Source of the DNA: a virus
Lineage: Duplodnaviria > Heunggongvirae > Uroviricota > Caudoviricetes
IMG/VR virus record: IMGVR_UViG_2529293240_000020
Location: 1-25,044 of that record
Reading direction: 5' to 3' (one strand)
DNA: 25,044 nt
Below are positions 758 through 24,438 of this stretch, piece by piece (position 1 is the first letter of the stretch; each line of letters opens with the position of its first letter). The position numbers were made by a program, and so were the translations under genes. The notes below the pieces were generated by a model, which saw only the letters and a list, made by a program, of their open reading frames with translations, made no database searches and had not been told where the DNA came from.

Positions 758-2359
758 ATGAACAATGAACTCCCCGATGATATTGAGCTGCTTAAAGCCA
801 TGTTGCGTAAGCAACAGAGTCGGCTTCGACAGTATGCCTGTCAGATCGCGGGCTATGAGCAGGAAATTGAACGGCTGAAAGCGCAACTCGACAGGTTGCG
901 TCGTATGTTGTTCGGCCAGAGTTCAGAGAAAAAGCGTCATAAGCTTGAAAATCAGATCCGACAGGCAGAAAAACGACTGTCGGAACTGGAAAACCGGCTG
1001 AACACAGCCAGAAATCTTCTGGAAGATGCATCGACAGTCACAGATTCACCTGACACCAGTCCCCCGTCAGAAAACCCGATCGCCAGTAAGCCTGAATCCC
1101 CAGGACGAAAATCTTCACGAAAACCGCTGCCGGCAGAACTTCCCCGGGAGACACATCGCCTTCTGCCTGCTGAAACCAGTTGCCCGGCCTGTGGAGGTGT
1201 TCTGAAAGAAATGGGGGAAACAATCTCAGAGCAACTGGATATCATTAATACCGCCTTTAAAGTTATCGAAACCATACGTCCCAAACTGGCCTGTAGCCGG
1301 TGTGATGTCATCGTTCAGGCACCACTTCCCCCTAAACCGATCGAACACGGTTATGCCAGTGCAGGGTTACTTGCACGGATCCTGGTCAGCAAATATATGG
1401 AACATATCCCTTTATATCGCCAGTCAGAAATATACGCGCGACAGGGCGTGGAGCTGAGCCGTAATACCATGGTGCGCTGGGTATCAGAAATGGCAGACAA
1501 ACTCCGTCCTCTGTATATAGCGCTGAATGACTATGTTCTGGAGGCAGGAAAGGTGCACGCAGATGACACTCCGGTGAAACGTACTGGCCCCGGGGAACGG
1601 AAGACGAAAACGGGTCGTCTGTGGGTATACGTCAGGGATGATCGTAATGCGGGTTCATCCCTGCCGGCAGCCGTCTGGTTCGCGTATTCGGCAGATCGCA
1701 AAGGAGAACATCCGCAGCTCCACCTGGCAAAGTATCAGGGCGTACTGCAGGCTGATGCCTATGCAGGTTATAACGTACTGTACGAAACGGGCCGGGTGAA
1801 GGAAGCCGGGTGCCTGGCCCACGCCCGCCGAAAAATCCATGACGAGGATGTGCGCCGTCCGACAGAAATGACTCAGGAAGCGCTCAGACGGATAGCAGAG
1901 TTATACGACATAGAAGCGGAGATACGTGGCAGTCCGGCAGAGGAACGGCTTGCAGTCAGAAAAGCCAGAAGCGTCCAGTTGATGCAGTCGTTGTACGACT
2001 GGATACAGTTGCAGAGGAAAACGCTGTCGAAACATGCGGAGATGGCGAAGGCGTTCGACTATATCCTGAATCACTGGAATGCGCTGAACGAGTTCTGTCG
2101 TGACGGCTGGGTGGAAATAGACAACAACATCGGTGAAAACGCGTTACGATCGGTGGCGGTTGGAAGAAAAAATTATCTCTTTTTCGGCTCAGACAAGGGA
2201 GGAGAAAGTGCGGCGATCATCTACAGTCTGCTGGTCACCTGCAAACAGAACGAAGTGGAGCCGGAGGACTGGTTGCGCGAAGTGATCGAGAAGCTCAATG
2301 ACTGGCCGTCGAACCAAGTGCATGAACTGCTGCCCTGGAACTTCTCGTCTGTAAAATAA
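758..2359 (+). CDS. IS66-family transposase TnpC (orf3), 533 aa
   Basis: Long ORF with N-terminal coiled-coil/leucine-zipper region, zinc-finger-like CPACGG...CSRC motif and the large catalytic region characteristic of IS66 TnpC. Confidence 0.8.
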
Positions 2360-2725: not shown

Positions 2726-3544
2726 TTAAGCAGCCATCTGATGATATTTTTCCCTGAAGGCTGCCGGGGAGATATTCCCCAGACGAGAGTGACGACGCTG
2801 ACGATTGTAGAAAATCTCAATGTATTCCCGTATTACTGAGATGGCTTCATCCCGGTTATTAAAACGATAGTGGCTCAGGCTCTCATTTTTCAGCGTTCCC
2901 CAGAAGCTTTCCATCGGAGCGTTGTCGTAACAGTTACCTTTACGCGACATTGATGTTTTCAGACCAGACTGCTCCTGTATGACCCGGTAATCGTATGCGC
3001 AGTACTGTGAACCTCGATCAGAGTGGTGGATTAGCCCGGCAGGTGGGCGCTGGCTCCTGAGCGCCATAAACAGGGCTTTACCTGTCAGCTCTTTTGTCAT
3101 GCGCTCTCCCATGGCGTAGCCGACAATTTCGCACGTATAAACATCTTTGATGCCAGCGAGGTACAACCATCCCTCCTGTGTGGCAACATACGTCAGGTCC
3201 GCCACCCAGACCTGATTTGGTGCTGTAGGAGCGAACGTCTGGTTCAGCAGATTTGGCGCAACTGGCAGATTGTGGTTCGGGTTCGTAGTCGCTCTGAACT
3301 TGCGTTTCTGCTTACAGCGTAGCCTTAGCTCCTTACGAAGACGTGCCAGTCGGTCACGACCAACGATGATGCCATTCTCTGCCAGCTCCGTCTGGAACCG
3401 CCGGGTTCCATATGTTTCGCGAGTGCGGATATGTGCCACCTTAATCTCCAGTTTTAGCCGCTCATCACTTTGTTTTCTGTCTGAGGGTTCATGCTGTACC
3501 CAGTTGTAATAACCGCTCCTGGATACACCAAATACCTGACACAT
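2726..3544 (-). CDS. IS600-like transposase OrfB (DDE integrase domain), expressed as an OrfAB fusion by -1 frameshift
   Basis: IS3-family OrfB with DDE catalytic region (HSDRGSQY... and downstream E); the frame overlaps the orfA 3-prime end. Confidence 0.8.
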   Translation of the reverse strand: MCQVFGVSRSGYYNWVQHEPSDRKQSDERLKLEIKVAHIRTRETYGTRRFQTELAENGIIVGRDRLARLRKELRLRCKQKRKFRATTNPNHNLPVAPNLLNQTFAPTAPNQVWVADLTYVATQEGWLYLAGIKDVYTCEIVGYAMGERMTKELTGKALFMALRSQRPPAGLIHHSDRGSQYCAYDYRVIQEQSGLKTSMSRKGNCYDNAPMESFWGTLKNESLSHYRFNNRDEAISVIREYIEIFYNRQRRHSRLGNISPAAFREKYHQMAA

Positions 3545-3579
3545 CGCTTCAATGGGAAATTGTTGTCGCCATTGTTCGA

Positions 3580-3882
3580 TTAACGCGTATTTTTCAGCGA
3601 CTCCTGTGCAAAATACGCTGTTGCTTTTTTTAATATATCTCGCTCAAGGCGAGCTTCATTTAACGCCTTACGCAGTTGCAGAATTTCAGATTCCAGTTCA
3701 GCCACCGTGCGGGAACCAGGAGTACCGAGCCCTTTTCTGGCGGCGGTAACCCATTGTCCTAAAGTGCCTTCAGGAAGGGATAATCGGGAAGCGCCTTCAC
3801 TGATCGAAAGTTGATTTTCAAGAACCGTTCTGACAGCTTCGGCTTTGAACTCTTTAGAGTAACGTTGGGTTTTTCTGCTCAT
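3580..3882 (-). CDS. IS600-like OrfA (HTH plus leucine zipper), 100 aa
   Basis: ATG at 3882..3880, typical IS3-family OrfA length and sequence. Confidence 0.8.
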   Translation of the reverse strand: MSRKTQRYSKEFKAEAVRTVLENQLSISEGASRLSLPEGTLGQWVTAARKGLGTPGSRTVAELESEILQLRKALNEARLERDILKKATAYFAQESLKNTR

Positions 3883-8347: not shown

Positions 8348-8418
8348 GACTCTGCCTTTTAAAAGGCAGTTAAAAGGGCATTCACAGCACCTTTTAACTG
8401 CGGTTTACGGATGACGGG
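8348..8418 (-). promoter_or_regulatory. Structured intergenic region after the major head gene: perfect 18-bp palindrome CTGCCTTTTAAAAGGCAG (8351..8368) and a 9-bp-stem hairpin GTTAAAAGG-N12-CCTTTTAAC (8368..8397)
   Basis: Inverted repeats read directly from the sequence; an mRNA stem-loop after the capsid gene is a common phage arrangement. Confidence 0.35.
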
Positions 8419-9324
8419 TTATGCCGGGGGGGTGATGTACGGGCTGTCCACGATCTCCACATCCTTGTACCAGATGTTGGAATCGCCGCCGTTAACCAGC
8501 ATGGCGTCAATAATGAGCTTCGCGTCCGCACGGTTTTTCGGCCCCACCACAAGGGTGGTCGGGCGGATGCCCAGCGGCTCACCGTTGGTGCCCTTCATGC
8601 CCCGCAGCAACTCATTGGCTTTTTTGTAGTTCTCCACCGTCAGTGCTGCACGGGAACCGACGGCGGTCTGCCAGAAGCCGAAGCCCGCATTACAGCGACC
8701 GTCCACGCCGTACAGGAACTCGTGGTTCTTGAAGGTGTGCTCGCTGTTCAGATCGTCCAGGGCTTCAAACTTAAAGGCGCGTCGCGTCTGCCAGATGATG
8801 GGTTTCAGCACCTGCGACTCATCAATCAGGAACCACGGTTCGCCCTTGTCTGATGCCGGGGTGCCGACAACGTTGCTGTACGTACCGTCACCCAGCGGGT
8901 GGTCTTCATCAAAGAAGTTCTGGCCGTCAAAGCACAGGGTGTTAAAACCGGCACACAACAGGGCGTAACACAGCTTGTCCGGGAACACAGCAGTCATACG
9001 GCCATAGCGTTCGGCGGTAATGCTGTACTGACCAATCTGGTCATCTTCAATGTGTTCACGCTTAACGCGAATGGAACTTTCCCAGAGTTTGTTGGTGATG
9101 GTGTAACCATAACCGTCCAGCGTTGCCAGCTGACGCTCACCGACCCATTCTTTGATGTCCGGTAAATCTTTCATCCAGCCGTAAGTGTTGGAGGCGGACG
9201 AACTCGGCACCTCAGAAGCAATACGATTCCACTGCGGTTCGACACCACTCAGTCCACGGGTAAAGGCGGCGCTCAGGCAGGTGGTCAGTGCATGAAGGAT
9301 TTCAGAACTGATAGTCTGTGACAT
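8419..9324 (-). CDS. Major head (capsid) subunit, Mu gpT-like, 301 aa
   Basis: Length and sequence typical of Mu-like major head subunits; position after the protease/scaffold gene. Confidence 0.8.
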   Translation of the reverse strand: MSQTISSEILHALTTCLSAAFTRGLSGVEPQWNRIASEVPSSSASNTYGWMKDLPDIKEWVGERQLATLDGYGYTITNKLWESSIRVKREHIEDDQIGQYSITAERYGRMTAVFPDKLCYALLCAGFNTLCFDGQNFFDEDHPLGDGTYSNVVGTPASDKGEPWFLIDESQVLKPIIWQTRRAFKFEALDDLNSEHTFKNHEFLYGVDGRCNAGFGFWQTAVGSRAALTVENYKKANELLRGMKGTNGEPLGIRPTTLVVGPKNRADAKLIIDAMLVNGGDSNIWYKDVEIVDSPYITPPA

Positions 9325-9331
9325 GTGTTAC

Positions 9332-10288
9332 TTACTCCTGTTTCGGTTTAGCGGCGAGGAACTCTTCCCCGGTAATACCCATGCTGCGACACATCGCCAG
9401 TTCGGCATCGGTCAGTGTCTGCGCGGGTTTATCCTTGCCCTGGCTGGGCTTGTCGTTGTTAACCAGCGGCTGTGCACCTTTGGTGTACTCCGCAAACTGT
9501 TTGCGGCCTTCTTCCGTGCGGCAGGTGGCAAGGAACATGTCACGGTTTGCCGGGGCGACTTTTCCGGCCCCGATGGCCGCATCCACAAGCGCCTCGGCTT
9601 CCTTCTCTTCCAGTTGCTGAAGGCGTTTTTCTGCGGTTTCGGCACGGTTCAGTGCCAAATTGTGGGTTTCCACCGGCACAAACTTCGTCAGGTCAGGTGT
9701 CTGTGCGCGGTTCAGCGCCACCTGTTCGTTCTCCTGAAGTTGTTTAATGGCGGCCACGGTATCGTCCACCGTGGCGGATTCAGCCAGCCCAAGCAGGCCG
9801 GTGATTTGCACAGGTACTGTCATCGGGTTTTTCTCCGTATTCAGTGCAGGAAAATCCAGGTTAGGTTTGTTGGTCAGCCCGACGCTGGACAGGCGCGTCA
9901 CCGCACCGTCTGCGTCATGGAAAAACGCCGGGCTGTAATAGCGGTAGCGGCGCTCGCTCAGCATCCACCGGGCGGACTCACTCCAGACAACACGCCCTTC
10001 AATGGTGCCGCTGTCCGTCACCCGCAGTGCTTCCACCCAGCCATACGCCGGAGCCTCTTCACCCCGCGGGCCTTTAATTTCGGTGGCATGTTCAATGTCC
10101 ACCGGAATGTTGATGTCGGACGAACGGGCAACCACCTCATGTGGATTGCGGTTCATCCACGTCCGGCCATCGCGCCCGGTGAACTCACCCGCAGGAACGA
10201 GTTCAAGCCATTCCGGCAGTTGAGCGGGTGTCAGCTCAGGGATGGGTTCTGGCAGGGAAAAACACAGCGCCAGCAGTTCCGGTTGCAT
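9332..10288 (-). CDS. Head maturation protease / scaffold protein, Mu gpI-like, 318 aa
   Basis: Protease-like N-terminal half and coiled-coil, charged scaffold-like C-terminal half (EKRLQQLEEKEAEALV...); GGAG SD 9 nt upstream of ATG 10288. Confidence 0.7.
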   Translation of the reverse strand: MQPELLALCFSLPEPIPELTPAQLPEWLELVPAGEFTGRDGRTWMNRNPHEVVARSSDINIPVDIEHATEIKGPRGEEAPAYGWVEALRVTDSGTIEGRVVWSESARWMLSERRYRYYSPAFFHDADGAVTRLSSVGLTNKPNLDFPALNTEKNPMTVPVQITGLLGLAESATVDDTVAAIKQLQENEQVALNRAQTPDLTKFVPVETHNLALNRAETAEKRLQQLEEKEAEALVDAAIGAGKVAPANRDMFLATCRTEEGRKQFAEYTKGAQPLVNNDKPSQGKDKPAQTLTDAELAMCRSMGITGEEFLAAKPKQE

Positions 10289-10331
10289 GTCAGTCTCCGT
10301 CGTCTGGGGTTACCGACGGTCAGTATGCGGA

Positions 10332-10367
10332 AGGCAGAAAAAAAGCCGGATTTACCGGCTTCACTGA
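10332..10367 (-). promoter_or_regulatory. Copy B of a ~35-bp repeated dyad element (AAGCCGG-ATTTA-CCGGCTT hairpin plus T-run on the minus strand), 50 nt upstream of the protease gene start
   Basis: Near-identical to 17871..17906 (two substitutions and one A-run length difference); minus-strand RNA would fold as a 7-bp stem, 5-nt loop, followed by UUUUUU. Confidence 0.45.
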
Positions 10368-10502
10368 AAACGGGGAAATACCCCCTTCAAAACCCCTTCA
10401 AAAACGCCACGGACGCTTCAAAAAAGCCAGGGTGTACATTCATGCCATCAGAATAAAAAACGCGTTTCTGATGCGTTTCAGGGGCATTTACGGCGGGGAG
10501 GG

Positions 10503-11255
10503 TTATTCACTGTTAAAACGGGCCTGTCTGGCCGCCAGCTCCTGCTCACGGTTTATGCCGGGATTGTAGTTCCAGCCCGGATCAATCCCTTCCGGCACCT
10601 CTTCCTCTTCGCCCGTACGTTTGTTCACCCAGCGGACAGTTCTGATTTCCGGCGCTTCGGTGTGAATGGTGCCCTGTGCCGCCAGTTGCGCATACTCACC
10701 ACGGCTGACCTGACGGATGGTGCATTTGCAGCCCCAGCCGTTAGGGGCAAAATGCGTCTGCCAGAACGGATGCTCTACCGGCAGACACAGACGCGCCCAT
10801 TTCACATGCTCCACCCGGTGCTCACGGGATGGCCCCAGCTCGTACATCAGATACGGCATGGCCTGCTTTGTCCGCTGAATGCGTTCCCACTGGCCCGCCG
10901 CGCGGGCGGTGCGCATGTTGGTATCAAAAATCGTGCGGAGGCGGCGGTCGCTGCCCAGTTGCACGGTGCGGGTTTCACCCGTCAGCGGATCATCCATCTC
11001 CTGTACGCCCCACCATCCGCGTTTTATCAGCAACGGTTGCAGCATCTCCCGGAACTCGCTGAACGTCTGCCCGCTTTGCAGGGCGTCTTCCACAAGGGCT
11101 TTCACATCCGACAACAAATCCAGTTGCAGCATTCTGGCCACGGGGAAGCTGTACCGGTGCTCTTCCCGCCACACATCCCGGTAATCAAAACCGGGACGCA
11201 GCTTCTTCGCCTTCAGCCACGCCAGCGCCTCTTTCGGGATGAGGGTTTCACGCAT
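10503..11255 (-). CDS. Head morphogenesis protein, Mu gpF-like, ~250 aa from ATG at 11255
   Basis: Position after the portal gene; ATG at 11255 overlaps the portal stop by 8 nt (the track ORF extends to 11312). Confidence 0.65.
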   Translation of the reverse strand: MRETLIPKEALAWLKAKKLRPGFDYRDVWREEHRYSFPVARMLQLDLLSDVKALVEDALQSGQTFSEFREMLQPLLIKRGWWGVQEMDDPLTGETRTVQLGSDRRLRTIFDTNMRTARAAGQWERIQRTKQAMPYLMYELGPSREHRVEHVKWARLCLPVEHPFWQTHFAPNGWGCKCTIRQVSRGEYAQLAAQGTIHTEAPEIRTVRWVNKRTGEEEEVPEGIDPGWNYNPGINREQELAARQARFNSE

Positions 11256-17821: not shown

Positions 17822-17833
17822 AAAAGCACCTGT

Positions 17834-17860
17834 GAAGCAGATTTAAACGTGGTCTGCTTC
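17834..17860 (-). promoter_or_regulatory. Perfect 8-bp inverted repeat GAAGCAGA-N11-TCTGCTTC, 13 to 39 nt upstream of the endolysin start codon
   Basis: Read directly from the sequence; lies in the presumed 5-prime UTR or operator region of the lys operon. Confidence 0.3.
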
Positions 17861-17870
17861 ATGGTGCCGG

Positions 17871-17906
17871 AGGCATAAAAAAAGCCGGATTTACCGGCTT
17901 CATTGA
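17871..17906 (-). promoter_or_regulatory. Copy A of the ~35-bp repeated dyad element (hairpin AAGCCGG-N5-CCGGCTT plus T-run on the minus strand), beginning 6 nt after the Mor/C-like stop codon
   Basis: Near-identical to 10332..10367; has the structure of a Rho-independent terminator for the minus strand and sits at the distance from the lys start expected for an activator site. Confidence 0.5.
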
Positions 17907-18356
17907 TTAAGGACGTCGTGGCGGACGACGAACGGGGTGAGGCAGGTTCGGGGAGTGGTAAAACAAATCCGGCTGGTATTTATTACACTCCAGACGCCGC
18001 ATCCGCTTGATGGCCTTGTAGACGGTTTTATACGTCACCCCGTAACGCTGAACCAGTTCAGGAATATTATGGCCGTTAAAATCACGCCAGATACGCATAT
18101 CCCGGACAAGATTCTCCAGAATATTCCCCCTCGGAACATAAACCTGCATCCCGCCGATATAGCGACAAATCGCCACAACCAGCTCAAGGGAATGGGCAGG
18201 GTCTGCGCCAATCCTGGCCAGCTCTTTACGCAGCAGTGCGTTCAGTTCAGAAAGTAACGCCGGATAAGCCGTGTTTTCCTGGTAATCGTTAAGGTATTCC
18301 AGAACGCTGTCGTCCCGGAAGTCTTCGAATAAATCCTGCTCTTTCATCTGTTTCAT
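17907..18356 (-). CDS. Mor/C-family transcriptional activator (Mu middle/late gene activator family), 149 aa
   Basis: C-terminal HTH-like region (IPELVQRYGVTYKTVYKAIKR) and size typical of Mu Mor/C proteins; position between the gemA-like gene and the late genes. Confidence 0.7.
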   Translation of the reverse strand: MKQMKEQDLFEDFRDDSVLEYLNDYQENTAYPALLSELNALLRKELARIGADPAHSLELVVAICRYIGGMQVYVPRGNILENLVRDMRIWRDFNGHNIPELVQRYGVTYKTVYKAIKRMRRLECNKYQPDLFYHSPNLPHPVRRPPRRP

Positions 18357-18904
18357 ACAGCAATTCTCCCGCTGTTTCGTGCGCGGGCATACGCACTGGT
18401 CAGTGCATCATAGCCGCGCAGCTCCTGCCCGGTTTCGCTCACAGGTAAAGGCACACCATGTCGGGCAAAGGCTTCACGGATGCAGCGCATATGCCACTGT
18501 TTGAGCGTTTCGAGCACAACCTGCAACGATTCCCCGTGACACCAGGCCAGCGTGGAAACACCCTGACCGCCATTACGTCTGGCTGTCAGGCGTTCAACGT
18601 ATTTGTCCAGCGCAGCGTCGCTGATATCGGAGACGAAACCATCAAGGAACATCTGCTGCCAGATTTTATAAATCTTCTCGCGCGGTGTGACATGCCCCTT
18701 AAAGCGACGGCGGGGATGTTTTTTCTGCTTCTTAAAACCGCGCTCTTTCATGGCATCGAGCACACGTTCCAGTTGTGCAACGGAAAGCTCGCGGCAACTG
18801 GTTTTGCCCGTGCACTGCACCAGAAAGGTGCGGTAAGTGTCATCGTCGAGTTGCAGGTCACGACGGGCAACATGAATTAATTTAATCAGGGATGTGCAGC
18901 TCAT
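18353..18904 (-). CDS. Mu gp16/GemA-like regulatory protein, 183 aa
   Basis: Sequence character (LIKLIHVARRDLQLDDDTYRTFL...GKTSCRELS) and position immediately upstream of the Mor-like gene with ATGA overlap, as in Mu. Confidence 0.55.
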   Translation of the reverse strand: MSCTSLIKLIHVARRDLQLDDDTYRTFLVQCTGKTSCRELSVAQLERVLDAMKERGFKKQKKHPRRRFKGHVTPREKIYKIWQQMFLDGFVSDISDAALDKYVERLTARRNGGQGVSTLAWCHGESLQVVLETLKQWHMRCIREAFARHGVPLPVSETGQELRGYDALTSAYARARNSGRIAV

Positions 18905-22299: not shown

Positions 22300-22803
22300 T
22301 TACTGATAGTGTTTTATGTTCAGATAATGCCCGATGACCTTGTCATGCAGCTCCACCGATTTTGAGAACGACAGTGACTTCCGTCCCAGCCTTGCCAGAT
22401 GTTGCCTCAGATTCAGATTATGTCGCTCAATGCGCTGAGTGTAACGCTTGCTGATAACGTGCAGCTTTCCCTTCAGGCGTGATTCATACAGCGGCCAGCC
22501 ATCCGTCATCCATACCACGACCTCAAAGGCCGACAGCAGGCTCAGAAGACGCTCCAGTGTGGCCAGAGTGCGTTCACCGAAGACGTGCGCCACAACCGTC
22601 CTCCGTATCCTGTCATACGCGTAAAACAGCCAGCGCTGACGTGATTTAGCACCGACGTAGCCCCAATGTTCGTCCATTTCAGCGCAGACAATCACATCAC
22701 TGCCCGGTTGTATGCGCGAGGTTACCGACTGCGGCCTGAGTTTTTTAAGTGACGTAAAACCGTGTTGAGGCCAACGCCCATAATGCGTGCACTGGCGCGA
22801 CAT
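22300..22803 (-). CDS. insB: IS1 InsB (transposase catalytic part, made as an InsAB-prime fusion by frameshift)
   Basis: Sequence characteristic of IS1 InsB (...[28 protein letters not shown]...). Confidence 0.8.
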
Positions 22804-23196: not shown

Positions 23197-24438
23197 TCAC
23201 CCAACTAGCTTCATTCCTTTTATCCCACCTTCAATCATGCTTCCACGATCCGCTGCCATCACAAAATTTGCCCACCATTGCATCATCGGGCGACGCTGTT
23301 CCAGGTAATCGCTGCGGTTATAAGCACGACGAACCTCATTCTTATCCACATGGGCCAATGCTGCCTCAATGGCATCAGGCGGAAAGCCTTGTTCATTAAG
23401 AGCCGTACTGGCAATTGATCTCAGACCATGCGAAACAAGCACACCACCAAAACCTGCGCGTTTTAGTGAGGCGTTAACAGTCTGACTGTTCATAGGCTGG
23501 TTGGGCTTGATACGGCTAGGAAAGATAAATTCTCGGTTGCCGCTTAGCGGTTTCATCATCTCCAGCACAGCTATTGCTTCATCTGACAATGGAACAGTAT
23601 GGTCGCGGTTCATTTTCATGCGTGCTGCGGGAATCTTCCACTCTTGCGCTTCTATGTCTACTTCTTCCCAGCGAGCTTCAGCCGCTTCGGCAGGGCGGGT
23701 AATAGTAAGAAGTTGCCACATGAACAGGCAGCGTGTGGAAAGGCTAATGCTGGCTGTTCGCATTGTCTGCATCAGTTGAGATAGCTGATCCGGTCGAATG
23801 CTGGGCATGTTCTTTTTCTGAGGCTTTTCGAAGGCTTTACCGATATTAACGCTGGGAACAGCATCAATCAGCCCTGTGTTCTGGGCATAGATCATGACCT
23901 CATTAATACGTTGACACAGGCGACGAACCGTTTCCAGTGCTCCTCTGGCCTGAACCGGTTGTACGGCCTGAACCAGTGTATGAGCTTTAATATCTGTAAC
24001 GCTAACGTCGCCAATCGCAGGAAAGACATCTCTTTCAAGAGAGCGCCAGATATCTTCCGCATAGTCCTCTGTCACACTGGCTTTCTTCACATTCCACCAA
24101 CGTTCAGCTACGAGCTGGAAAGTATTGGTTTTGGCTTCCAGCGAACTACGCAATTGTTCTTGCTGATGTTCCTGCGGATCAATCTGTTTAGCTAGGAGTG
24201 AGCGGGACTCTGCACGGTAGTTTCTGGCATCGGCAAGGGTAACTGACGGGTAAGGGCCTATGCTTTTCTTTGCTCGTTTCTTGGTGACAGGGCGAATGTA
24301 GCGAAACTGCCAGATTTTACTCCCGCTGGATTTAATGAGTAGCTCAAGGCCATCGCCATCATAGAGAACGTAGTCCGCTTCCTTGGGTTTAGCAGATTCG
24401 ATTTCCTTAACGGATAGAGGTTTGGTTTGTCTTGCCAT
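23197..24438 (-). CDS. int: Tyrosine recombinase / integrase, P4-type (CP4-57 IntA-like), 413 aa, apparently intact
   Basis: Downstream of ssrA in the same orientation with a 204-bp gap; catalytic H-x-x-R (HGLRS) and Tyr (AYNRSDY) motifs; N-terminus MARQTKPLSVKEIESAKPKEADYVLYDGDGLELLIKSSGSK typical of P4-family integrases. Confidence 0.85.
   Translation of the reverse strand: MARQTKPLSVKEIESAKPKEADYVLYDGDGLELLIKSSGSKIWQFRYIRPVTKKRAKKSIGPYPSVTLADARNYRAESRSLLAKQIDPQEHQQEQLRSSLEAKTNTFQLVAERWWNVKKASVTEDYAEDIWRSLERDVFPAIGDVSVTDIKAHTLVQAVQPVQARGALETVRRLCQRINEVMIYAQNTGLIDAVPSVNIGKAFEKPQKKNMPSIRPDQLSQLMQTMRTASISLSTRCLFMWQLLTITRPAEAAEARWEEVDIEAQEWKIPAARMKMNRDHTVPLSDEAIAVLEMMKPLSGNREFIFPSRIKPNQPMNSQTVNASLKRAGFGGVLVSHGLRSIASTALNEQGFPPDAIEAALAHVDKNEVRRAYNRSDYLEQRRPMMQWWANFVMAADRGSMIEGGIKGMKLVG

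Follow-up and report, generated by a model that had tools for sequence, protein, structure and literature searches.

The gap between the F-like and protease genes

Among the late genes carried on the minus strand of the DNA analysed here (a stretch of 25,044 nucleotides, hereafter the window), the longest intergenic gap lies at positions 10289-10502, followed by gaps of 85 bp (17822-17906) and 71 bp (8348-8418). On that strand it runs from the TAA stop codon of an F-like gene (Pfam Phage_Mu_F; 10505-10503), its 5' border, to the ATG of a protease gene (Pfam Mu-like_Pro; 10286-10288), its 3' border, and it includes the Shine-Dalgarno motif of the latter gene (GGAG, 10295-10298). A first-pass annotation of the window had drawn attention to an unusually long gap of 214 bp between these two genes; this length is exact, and all the features that it listed were found again where it had placed them. 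Conservation of these elements in homologous prophages had been set beforehand as a test, and such conservation was found: repeats, dyad, T7 tract, spacer, hexamer and leader, all described below, are invariant in 20 relatives amid nearby positions that vary, and the layout of the gap is retained in phages whose proteases are just 49-60% identical.

The prophage present in the window is an IS-interrupted remnant that lacks transposase genes. The position of the gap relative to the genome centre was measured in intact relatives, the window's own prophage being truncated. In the VL40 prophage (intact, ~34.6 kb), whose gap is 97% identical to that of the window, the gap is situated ~680 bp from the centre, and in Kp4866-3 (33,090 bp) ~640 bp from it, which in both cases puts it to the left of the genome centre by ~2%. 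The equivalent gap of phage Mu (36,717 bp) lies 478 bp from the centre, or 1.3%. It separates genes G and I and is annotated in AF083977 with a gyrase cut site, a predicted terminator and the late promoter PI. According to PMC3820752 and PMC10052514, the Mu strong gyrase site (SGS) has to be central in order to function. A comparison with the corresponding regions of Mu-like phages, which the first-pass annotation had recommended, points to the Mu G-I gap as the probable counterpart, by way of intermediates; a search of the phage collection with the gap alone returned no match.

Several other contents of the gap were considered and set aside. A small ORF of 15 aa (ATG at 10477) has lost its start in most relatives and is absent from Kp4866-3 and L026, as is a second one of 18 aa (ATG at 10442), while two antisense ORFs (9323-10456 and 10228-10569) have no Pfam match and were treated as spurious. 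The gap had also been described as structured, with RNA structure prediction as the proposed check: this holds for one strong hairpin, formed by the dyad, but not for the gap as a whole, whose folding does not rise above that of shuffled sequences (z -1.5), and for this reason neither a structured RNA element nor a small RNA was considered further. In an Rfam scan of 9800-11000 the best match, sroD, reached 20.4 bits (E 0.34), where a gathering score of 50 applies, and this sub-threshold match is probably caused by the same terminator-like hairpin.

The predicted gyrase site

A predicted SGS-like strong gyrase site of ~130 bp, consisting of a left arm, a cleavage core and a right arm, occupies positions 10373..10503 of the minus strand, an extent defined as 65 bp on either side of the predicted stagger, with the motif length taken from PMC6379681. 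The 4-nt cleavage stagger, GGCATG^AATG^TACACC, is predicted at 10437..10440 from spacing and pattern match: in Mu, 19 nt separate the start of the stagger AATC (L007, 9377-9380) from the first TTNAAN repeat downstream, and transferring this spacing to the window leads to 10440-10437. The left arm (10441..10503) carries an 8-bp inverted repeat (CATCAGAA/TTCTGATG, 10446-10473) and a hairpin, AAACGC-N9-GCGUUU followed by U6 (~10456-10479). The latter had been noted as a weak hairpin after the F-like stop; it is indeed present and weak (-6.2 kcal/mol, z -2.1), but its pairing is lost in variants L010 and L020, and the likely terminator is the dyad itself. A further left-arm motif, TGAAACGCATCAGAAAC, is similar to TCAAACGCGCTCAGAGAC in Kp4866-3 and TCAGCGCCGCTCTGAGGC in Mu, each located 58-60 nt from the first repeat. 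The SGS-like site begins at the F-like stop codon.

The right arm is built around three phased copies of TTTTGAAGS, all on the minus strand (10384-10392, 10395-10403 and 10415-10423, with spacings of 11 and 20 bp), which the first-pass annotation had already identified. These are the only three copies in the 25-kb window, all within 42 bp, where a shuffle control predicts 0.56 per window. Repeat 1, TTTTTTGAAG (10416..10425), aligns with TTTTTTAAAA in Mu, TTCTTAAAC in Kp4866-3 and TCGTTAAAC in L026. Repeat 2, TTTTTGAAG (10396..10404), is found 20-21 bp, or two helical turns, past repeat 1 and is invariant in 20 sequences of the E. coli group; repeat 3, TTTTGAAG (10385..10392), follows 11 bp, or one helical turn, past repeat 2. 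For A/T periodicity at 10-11.4 bp, the segment 10367-10430 ranks second in the window (z 3.7), and the Mu right arm is at the 99.2nd percentile for the same property, so that the phased A/T bending signals of an extended SGS right arm are found here as well. At the end of the arm, a small hairpin GGGGGUAUUUCCCC followed by GUUUUC (10372..10385; -9.4 kcal/mol) may be either distal right arm or a weak terminator-like site; it is not kept in most E. coli-group relatives, which have GGGGGTATTCTTCCC.

Direct comparison of the Mu SGS with the window, using BLAST and nhmmer, revealed nothing significant in the gap, and the best direct BLAST match anywhere in the window (8364-8407, E 0.001) is a separate hairpin. 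Intermediate genomes provide the connection. The Kp4866-3 gap matches the Mu SGS over 101 nt with a single gap (E 9e-7), in an alignment that spans both the cut site and the right arm, and it matches the window gap at E 1.5e-5, while the L026 gap matches that of the window at E 7e-10. With a leave-out profile made from five other relatives only, the top match in Mu was the SGS right arm (E 1.9e-6), and the top match in the window was 10412-10381, at only E 0.04. Another link is offered by SE11, a Mu-type prophage of E. coli that combines the left arm and core of Mu with a right arm of the TTTTGAAG type: a 46-nt segment of this arm is 95.7-97.8% identical (E 1e-10) to the gaps of window-type prophages in E. 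coli genomes, 47 of which match when counted by identity bands. As judged from these alignments, homology between the window site and the Mu SGS is transitive, or else runs via the SE11 chimera.

The gyrase motif itself was scored with a crude strong/weak-base (S/W) match to the published 133-nt consensus, used in place of the frequency matrix (PMC6379681, Sutormin et al.). In the window this match peaks at 10437-10440 (z 3.64), within the top 0.02% of positions but only as the 9th peak in 25 kb; the Mu SGS ranked first in 10.5 kb. The peak falls at most 1 nt from the stagger predicted by spacing in the window, L012, L026, L035, Mu and SE11, and off the predicted site in L027 and Enterovibrio (two of nine lineages). 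The bases at the predicted cut site differ among close relatives. An older gyrase cleavage consensus fits ~10 of 13 positions in both the window and Mu and was too weak to be of use.

Three TTNAAN repeats, spaced by ~21 bp and 11-13 bp, recur in eight lineages, down to 49% protease identity, and all three have changed together from one lineage to another (TTTAAAC, TTTGAAC, TTTGAAG). Such concerted change could reflect recognition by a sequence-specific protein, as opposed to simple bendability, and as the expected behaviour of a co-evolving binder it is shared with a different explanation, according to which the whole gap is one regulated promoter and the TTTTGAAG repeats are bent DNA or sites for IHF, Fis or a phage regulator, with no part played by gyrase. 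The repeats do stand 25-80 bp upstream of the activator dyad and are in helical phase, and the direct similarity between Mu and the window is not significant. We nevertheless regard this explanation as improbable. Experiments have defined the Mu SGS, and its right arm is formed by the same repeat module; in SE11 the module stands ahead of a C-type promoter, different from that of the window; and in the Enterovibrio relative the repeats follow the F gene, with ~2 kb of cargo genes between them and the protease promoter. Moreover, the copy A promoter described below lies directly against the activator gene and hence has none of these repeats upstream, and the match to the gyrase consensus peaks at the cut site that spacing predicts. 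The earlier suggestion of bent-DNA or factor-binding repeats is therefore retained for the phased bendable DNA and for the predicted binding of a factor, but not for a role as promoter accessories, to which the Enterovibrio and SE11 contexts are opposed.

The dyad element and its predicted activator

The protease side of the gap contains copy B of a 42-nt repeat (10326..10367, minus strand), a predicted Mor-type (Pm-like) promoter core upstream of the protease gene, which is 90% identical to copy A. The gap matches the annotated Mu Pm with 78% identity over 46 nt (E 2e-6). Within copy B, the dyad AAGCCGGTAAATCCGGCTT (10343..10361, minus strand) is a predicted Mor-type activator site and agrees with the Mu Pm dyad AAGCCGGTTAATCCGGCTT at 18 of 19 positions, where the dyad inside the annotated Mu Pm was treated as the Mor site. 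That this dyad is a repeated element, with its second copy in the gap, had been recognised at the outset: it occurs exactly twice in the window, at 10343-10361 and 17882-17900, against 0.02 occurrences expected. Its core, GGT.AATC, is invariant in 8 promoters.

Past the dyad, the minus strand presents a T7 tract (10338..10344), which is also the U-tail of a terminator-like hairpin and is invariant in the E. coli group; a G+C-rich spacer, CTGCCTTCCG (10328-10337); and a -10-like hexamer, CATACT (10322..10327), with no -35 hexamer. The layout of Mu Pm is identical, with T7 and then ACGTCCTCAA. The hexamers found 25-30 nt from the dyad centre are CATACT here, TATCCT in Mu Pm, CACCAT in copy A, CAAAAT in Kp4866-3 copy A and TATTCT in Enterovibrio; position 2 (A), position 6 (T) and the following G are invariant in the alignment of 8 promoters (A2). 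A dyad without a -35 element, a T tract and G+C spacer at a fixed offset, and a cognate Mor-type activator are thus all found, as in promoters of the Pm type, while a sigma-70 promoter scan of 9800-11000 detected no consensus promoter. We infer a transcript start at ~10314-10316, whose exact place is uncertain because of the published position of the Mor dyad in Pm, from -51 to -36 with its centre at -43.5: if TATCCT and CATACT are taken as the -12..-7 hexamer, the dyad centre falls near -37 or -38, unlike the published value.

Between the hexamer and the protease gene lies the inverted repeat CCGTCG-N11-CGACGG (10297..10319, minus strand; arms 10319-10314 and 10302-10297; -9.7 kcal/mol, z -1.8). 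The first-pass annotation had reported it with a 3' arm overlapping the GGAG motif (10298-10295), and the overlap amounts to 2 nt. A repeat that starts 0-3 nt past the hexamer is found in 9 of 11 leaders of Mor- or C-type promoters (each p<0.05). In variants L011/L025 and L015/L024, one CCGTCG/CGACGG pair is broken with no compensation, and much of the 5' arm would be located upstream of the predicted start, because the repeat begins 3 nt past the -10-like hexamer.

As RNA, the dyad folds into an 8-bp G+C-rich stem with a 5-nt loop followed by U7 (-12.6 kcal/mol, z -4.2), which a scan classifies as terminator-like. It is by far the strongest hairpin in the gap, a point that the first-pass annotation had not made, and neither the hairpin nor U7 varies among 20 close relatives; in the GenBank record of Mu, the Pm dyad is likewise called a terminator by TransTermHP. 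With a canonical terminator shape at both copies, each downstream of a gene, the dyad might be merely a duplicated rho-independent terminator, the protease gene being expressed by read-through or from an unrecognised promoter. This shape, however, is conserved only in the E. coli group, in Kp4866-3 copy A and in Mu Pm. On the protease side, the dyad retains its left arm, TWAAT centre and flanks in Kp4866-3, L026/L036 and Trabulsiella, while the right arm, CCAC(C)TT, is unpaired and no T-run follows. Since the sequence of the dyad is maintained where pairing and T-run are lost, the conserved property is that of a DNA site. Furthermore, similarity between the two copies, and with Mu Pm, extends past the hairpin and through the spacer to the -10-like hexamer, and a Mor orthologue is encoded beside copy A, so that we see little chance of the dyad being a terminator and nothing else. 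Its folding into an 8-bp hairpin with U7 means that, as a predicted activator site, it probably ends the upstream transcript too.

Copy A of the repeat (17865..17906, minus strand) is a predicted Pm-like promoter and terminator located after the stop codon of the activator gene and upstream of the lysis gene. Its parts are a dyad at 17882-17900, T7 at 17877-17883, the hexamer CACCAT at 17861-17866 and a leader inverted repeat at 17834-17860. The dyad starts 6 nt past the activator stop, with five bases between, as in the mor-Pm region of Mu, and its terminator-like hairpin has a z of about -4.2, as at copy B. The adjacent gene (17907..18356, minus strand) encodes a transcription activator of the Mor type, which is predicted to act in trans on both dyads: the protein shares 61% identity with Mu Mor (E 1e-61) and 32% with Mu C, belongs to the Pfam Mor family (E 4e-30) and has a recognition helix nearly identical to that of Mor. 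No third Mor-type dyad serving tail or mom genes was detected in the window or in the VL40 stretches examined. Likewise, neither the window nor the 28 kb examined of the VL40 relative yielded a gene for a C-type activator or a promoter of the C type.

The idea that the gap is decaying, functionless DNA, left over from a lost G-like gene and from former regulatory sequence of a defective prophage, which could draw on the IS-interrupted state of the window prophage and its lack of transposase genes, on a stretch, CATCAGAAACGCGT, that resembles the 3' end of Mu gene G and on short ORFs without conserved start codons, is most improbable in view of the near-identity of the gap in intact prophages (VL40, for instance), the elements that stay invariant in 20 relatives amid varying positions and the layout kept down to 49-60% protease identity.

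Proposed function and comparison with phage Mu

We therefore favour the reading of the gap as a probable counterpart of the central G-I control region of Mu, composed of a gyrase site, a Mor-dependent promoter and a leader. This assignment builds on sequence anatomy, homologies, conservation, the central location in intact relatives and the match to the gyrase motif; from these, cleavage by gyrase, binding of Mor, the transcript start and termination are predicted. The earlier description of a transcript boundary with a regulated promoter and leader agrees with these predictions, except that the repeats are now assigned to gyrase and not to the promoter. Host DNA gyrase would bind ~10503-10373 and cleave at ~10440-10437, the right arm wrapping around the GyrA C-terminal domain, with the TTTTGAAG repeats placing A/T tracts in helical phase. 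For the Mu SGS it is established that processive supercoiling joins the prophage ends for replicative transposition; by analogy, the site in the window may have the same role in replication. Since no transposase genes remain in the prophage remnant of the window, the site may be idle there.

The segment 10367-10322 would constitute a promoter of the Mu Pm type that depends on Mor. The orthologue of Mor (17907-18356) is expected to bind the dyad at 10343-10361 and, as a -35 element is lacking, to recruit sigma-70 RNA polymerase to the -10-like CATACT. From a start near 10315, the protease, scaffold and capsid genes would then be transcribed, and 10321-10289 would form a short leader with the inverted repeat and the ribosome-binding site. 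In the transcript that arrives from copy A after passing through the lysis, terminase, portal and F genes, the dyad would form the 8-bp hairpin with U7 and should therefore also end this upstream transcript. As a single Mor-like activator and no C gene were found, Mor-type promoters probably drive the late genes directly. This suggests that a widespread family of E. coli prophages runs a cascade of two steps, from Mor-type promoters to late genes, versus three steps in Mu.

The gyrase T-segment (right) arm runs into the Mor dyad, which lies at +76 to +97 from the predicted cut. It is conceivable, if rather unlikely, that gyrase site and Mor promoter are physically interlocked, that the dyad is dual-purpose and that the 46-nt right arm has been exchanged between unrelated Mu-like lineages. 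If so, gyrase wrapping and the binding of Mor or RNA polymerase could be mutually exclusive, or coupled through local supercoiling, so that the change from replication to late transcription would be governed by a switch built into the site, and the dyad would act both as the intrinsic terminator of the upstream operon and as the activator site of the next one.

Mechanistic and cryo-EM studies of DNA gyrase use the Mu SGS as their standard substrate, and the special nature of its right arm is as yet only partly understood. The TTTTGAAG right arm, the SE11 chimera and the TTTAAAC or TTTGAAC versions are natural variants that lend themselves to asking which features confer strong, processive gyrase action. 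For the annotation of Mu-like prophages, a practical rule is that a long gap upstream of the protease gene corresponds to a predicted gyrase site and late promoter, and not to missing annotation.

The arrangement as a whole is a further example of something already known. Like the Mu SGS, as described in PMC10052514, PMC3820752, PMC6379681 and PMC11626157, the predicted gyrase site is non-coding DNA directly upstream of the protease (I) gene and slightly left of the centre, ~130 bp long, with an asymmetric right arm that points along transcription. Both have three phased TTNAAN repeats at ~+19, +40 and +52 from the stagger, in both the crude S/W match to the E. coli gyrase motif peaks within 1 nt of the predicted register, and their sequences are linked via Kp4866-3, L026 and the SE11 chimera. 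They differ in the repeat unit, which is TTTTGAAG in the window and TTTTTAAA(A/C) in Mu, and in the core, where GGCATG^AATG^TACA replaces GGCATAA^AATC^AGCC. The left arm of the window site is wholly non-coding from the F stop, whereas that of Mu overlaps the end of gene G, and the phage family of the window has no G gene at this position. Distally, the right arm enters the activator dyad, in contrast to that of Mu, which enters a separate terminator and a C-type promoter.

The promoter most resembles Mu Pm with its Mor-binding dyad (Artsimovitch and Howe 1996; PMC4287176; AF083977 feature 9163..9233). The two share a near-identical dyad, AAGCCGGT(T/A)AATCCGGCTT, the succession of T7, a 10-nt G+C-rich spacer and a -10-like hexamer at equal offset with no -35 element, and a dyad that is also a predicted terminator. 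Unlike Mu, in which Pm drives a middle operon ending in C, the window has two Pm-type promoters, both predicted to serve late genes (lysis/head and protease/capsid), and their hexamers (CATACT, CACCAT) are weaker. In job and place, the proposed element corresponds to Mu PI: it would end the lysis/head transcript and let transcription begin anew, under control of an activator, for I (protease/scaffold) and the capsid genes. PI and the lys transcript end in the Mu G-I gap are the subject of Margolin et al. 1989, and Zha, Zhao and Howe are reported to have dealt with them in 1994. The -10 sequences are similar (CAAACTG in Mu, CATACTG in the window), and an inverted repeat lies between the -10 and the ribosome-binding site in both. 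PI differs in being C-dependent, with another upstream box (CATAACCCC...), and the terminator and activator site, which are separate in Mu, appear to be served by the one dyad in the window.

Layout of the gap and state of the prophage

The window carries a Mu-like prophage whose genes lie on the minus strand. Its minus-strand gap at 10289-10502 separates a Mu F-like head morphogenesis gene, ending at 10503, from a Mu I-type protease gene starting at 10288; Pfam assigned both, as well as the GemA gene (18353-18904) and a Mor-family activator gene (17907-18356), all on the minus strand. Prophages matching the region, 92-97% identical and with the same gene order, occur in 49 complete E. coli genomes; in 46 of these the match covers at least 80% of the region. 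The copy in the window is a remnant, its ends replaced or broken up by mobile elements: an IS66 transposase (758-2359, plus strand) and an IS3-family element (2726-3882; orfB 2726-3544, orfA 3580-3882) stand where the tape-measure gene is expected, IS1 (22300-22803) and a tyrosine integrase (23197-24438) where Mu-type early and transposase genes are expected, and no Mu-type transposase gene was found in the window. The F-like gene has one 12-nt direct repeat unit (AGCTGGCGCGCC) fewer than all 19 relatives aligned (10530-10545), an in-frame deletion of four codons close to its 3' end.

The sequence elements listed by the first-pass annotation are all present. No gap between late genes is longer than this one of 214 bp; TTTTGAAGS is present just three times in 25 kb, all inside 42 bp and spaced 11 and 20 bp apart; the dyad AAGCCGGTAAATCCGGCTT has exactly two copies (10343-10361, copy B, and 17882-17900, copy A), each within a 42-nt repeat (10326-10367 and 17865-17906, 90% identity between copies); and both the CCGTCG-N11-CGACGG inverted repeat and a weak hairpin after the F stop codon can be recognized. 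RNA structure of the gap as a whole is not above the ordinary (z -1.5), its strongest hairpin being the dyad itself (8 bp plus U7, -12.6 kcal/mol, z -4.2), which a scan rated terminator-like.

In the GenBank record of Mu, the gap between genes G and I is annotated with the strong gyrase site (SGS) cut site, a predicted terminator and the late promoter PI; the record also places Pm, the Mor-dependent middle promoter, directly after the mor gene, and a predicted terminator within Pm. Reading these sequences led to two hypotheses, a gyrase site and a promoter, which were tested separately. The gap would be filled by a gyrase site of about 130 bp, counted from the F stop codon, a promoter of about 45 bp and a leader of about 35 bp. 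The initial interpretation is partly right, in that it saw a transcript boundary, a regulated promoter and repeats that are phased and bendable; it missed the predicted gyrase-site and Mor-site identities.

A predicted gyrase site of Mu type

When the Mu SGS was compared directly with the window by BLAST, the gap gave no significant match, and intermediates were therefore sought, gathering relatives through the protease protein and a phage collection (Klebsiella phage Kp4866-3). The Kp4866-3 gap aligns with Mu over 101 nt across the cut site and right arm, with one gap (E 9e-7); its match to the gap of the window has E 1.5e-5. For L026, another lineage, the values are E 7e-10 against the window and E 1.2e-4 against the right arm of Mu. 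A profile made from five relatives, with neither Mu nor the window group among them, scores best on Mu in the SGS right arm (9397-9437, E 1.9e-6) and best on the window at 10412-10381 (E 0.04).

The clearest link between the Mu SGS and the window gap is a Mu-type prophage of E. coli SE11, by its sequence a natural chimera. Its order is gene G, gap, protease gene, and it shares 80% identity with Mu in the region; its gap keeps the left arm and core of Mu, and its right arm, TTTTTGAAGGTTCTGTGGCGTTTTTGAAGGGGTTTTGAAGGGGGTA, is of window type. Over 46 nt this arm is 95.7-97.8% identical to the gaps of window-type prophages (E 1e-10; matches in 47 genomes, counted by identity bands), with unrelated flanks. 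Such a shared module points to exchange by recombination or to very strong constraint. In SE11 (NC_011415 2678814-2679319) the module, corresponding to window 10380-10425, is non-coding.

All eight lineages, anchored on the second repeat, have three TTNAAN units, repeats 1 and 2 about 21 bp apart and repeats 2 and 3 11-13 bp apart. They also carry a left-arm motif, 58-60 bp upstream of repeat 1, and the layout persists in lineages with as little as 49% protease identity. That the phased right arm is important has been described (PMC6379681, PMC11626157); in A/T periodicity, 10367-10430 ranks second in the window (z 3.7), and the Mu right arm is at the 99.2nd percentile in its own context.

As a homology-independent test, we scored the match of strong/weak base patterns, corrected for G+C, to a 133-nt gyrase consensus; the supplement of Sutormin et al. 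(PMC6379681) supplied both this consensus and a centred fragment of the Mu SGS. Crude as the score is, it puts the Mu SGS at the top of 10.5 kb, 1 nt off the true stagger of the 4-nt gyrase cut. In the window, a peak at 10437-10440 (z 3.64, top 0.02% of positions, only the ninth peak) coincides exactly with the stagger expected from the spacing in Mu, where it starts 19 nt upstream of repeat 1. Peak and predicted stagger agree within 1 nt in SE11 and in the relatives' loci L012, L026 and L035, roughly in Kp4866-3, and not in L027 or the Enterovibrio locus.

SGS function needs a central position, and the literature treats the site as specific to Mu-like prophages (PMC3820752; PMC10052514). In VL40, an intact E. 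coli prophage of the window type (about 34.6 kb, ends defined via transposase-binding repeats), the gap lies about 680 bp left of the centre; the corresponding offsets are about 640 bp in Kp4866-3 and 478 bp in Mu. That the repeats might instead be part of the promoter is contradicted by the Enterovibrio relative, in which the three repeats directly follow the F gene and about 2 kb of reverse-strand cargo separates them from the protease promoter. The gap repeats are predicted to belong to a Mu-type gyrase site. In that Enterovibrio norvegicus prophage (L003, 880-1000 and 2900-2990) the repeats are of TTAAAC type and the cargo comprises two reverse-strand genes, so the interval between gyrase site and promoter is used as a cargo insertion point.

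A predicted Mor-type promoter and its leader

Over 46 nt, the gap and the annotated Mu Pm are 78% identical (E 2e-6). Common to both are the dyad (AAGCCGGTAAATCCGGCTT in the window, AAGCCGGTTAATCCGGCTT in Pm), a T7 tract, a 10-nt G+C-rich spacer and, at equal offset, a -10-like hexamer (CATACT in the gap, TATCCT in Pm). Copy A has the same parts, its dyad beginning 6 nt past the activator stop codon, as in Mu. Across eight aligned promoters (copies A and B of the window and of Kp4866-3, Mu Pm, L026, Trabulsiella and Enterovibrio), the core GGT.AATC never varies, and neither do the A and T at hexamer positions 2 and 6 or the G after the hexamer; positions 2 and 6 are the best conserved in sigma-70 -10 elements. 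The window activator shares 61% identity with Mor (E 1e-61) and only 32% with C; its recognition helix is almost the same as that of Mor.

In the E. coli group, Kp4866-3 copy A and Mu Pm, the dyad can pair as a perfect hairpin and is followed by U7; it is invariant in 20 close relatives. On the protease side of Kp4866-3, L026/L036 and Trabulsiella, its sequence is kept with the right arm unpaired and no T-run, which argues that the conserved entity is a DNA site rather than an RNA hairpin. The gap dyad is accordingly a predicted Mor site, and we infer that it may play a double role: as RNA it would end the transcript arriving from copy A, and as DNA it would be the Mor site of the next operon. 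Prophages of the window type probably run a two-step cascade, since Mor-type dyads number only two in the window and only two in 28 kb of VL40, with none near com/mom and no C-like gene annotated in VL40.

The published place of the Mor dyad in Pm (-51 to -36, centre -43.5) is at odds with TATCCT/CATACT as a standard -12 to -7 hexamer. Because of this mismatch, the predicted transcript start near 10315 can only be inferred. The CCGTCG/CGACGG repeat (10297-10321) begins 3 nt past the hexamer and ends within the Shine-Dalgarno sequence. Of 11 leaders of Mor/C-type promoters, 9 have an inverted repeat of 5-8 bp that starts 0-3 nt past the hexamer (each p<0.05 versus shuffles), with unrelated sequences; among them are those of copy A (17834-17860), Mu Pm and PI (718-748 and 9527-9550 in L007, the Mu locus) and Kp4866-3 (L002). 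Such a repeat would span the predicted transcript start, and if the start is about 7 nt past the hexamer, the 5' arm of CCGTCG/CGACGG is only partly transcribed. Two natural variants break one of its pairs without compensation.

Three other elements were recorded on the minus strand. Just past the F stop codon, 10485-10500 reads CCGCCGTAAATGCCCC (CCGCCGTAAATCCCCC in most relatives), resembling both the core of the Mor dyad, GGTAAATCC, and the box CCCCCGTAAATCTCACC that Vibrionaceae phages carry upstream of their protease gene; a -10-like hexamer is missing at the corresponding distance. A small dyad, AAGGGGGTATTTCCCCGTT (10369-10387), centred 26 bp upstream of the Mor dyad, shares 14 of its 19 positions, probably by chance or as a piece of the gyrase arm, since it varies in close relatives. 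In the 71-bp gap after the major head gene (8348-8418), GCAGUUAAAAGG...CCUUUUAACUGC can pair into a hairpin of 12 bp with CUUUUAAAA behind it (-24.6 kcal/mol, z -2.7), resembling a terminator or attenuator placed downstream of the capsid gene; A/T periodicity is high there, and this gap gives the best BLAST match of the distal Mu SGS right arm, probably by chance.

Comparison with Mu

The gap is predicted to combine elements of known kinds, the Mu SGS and Mu Pm, and would differ from Mu in three modest ways: its repeat unit is not that of the Mu SGS; it has a Pm-type promoter where the G-I gap of Mu has the C-dependent PI; and a single dyad seems to serve as both terminator and activator site.
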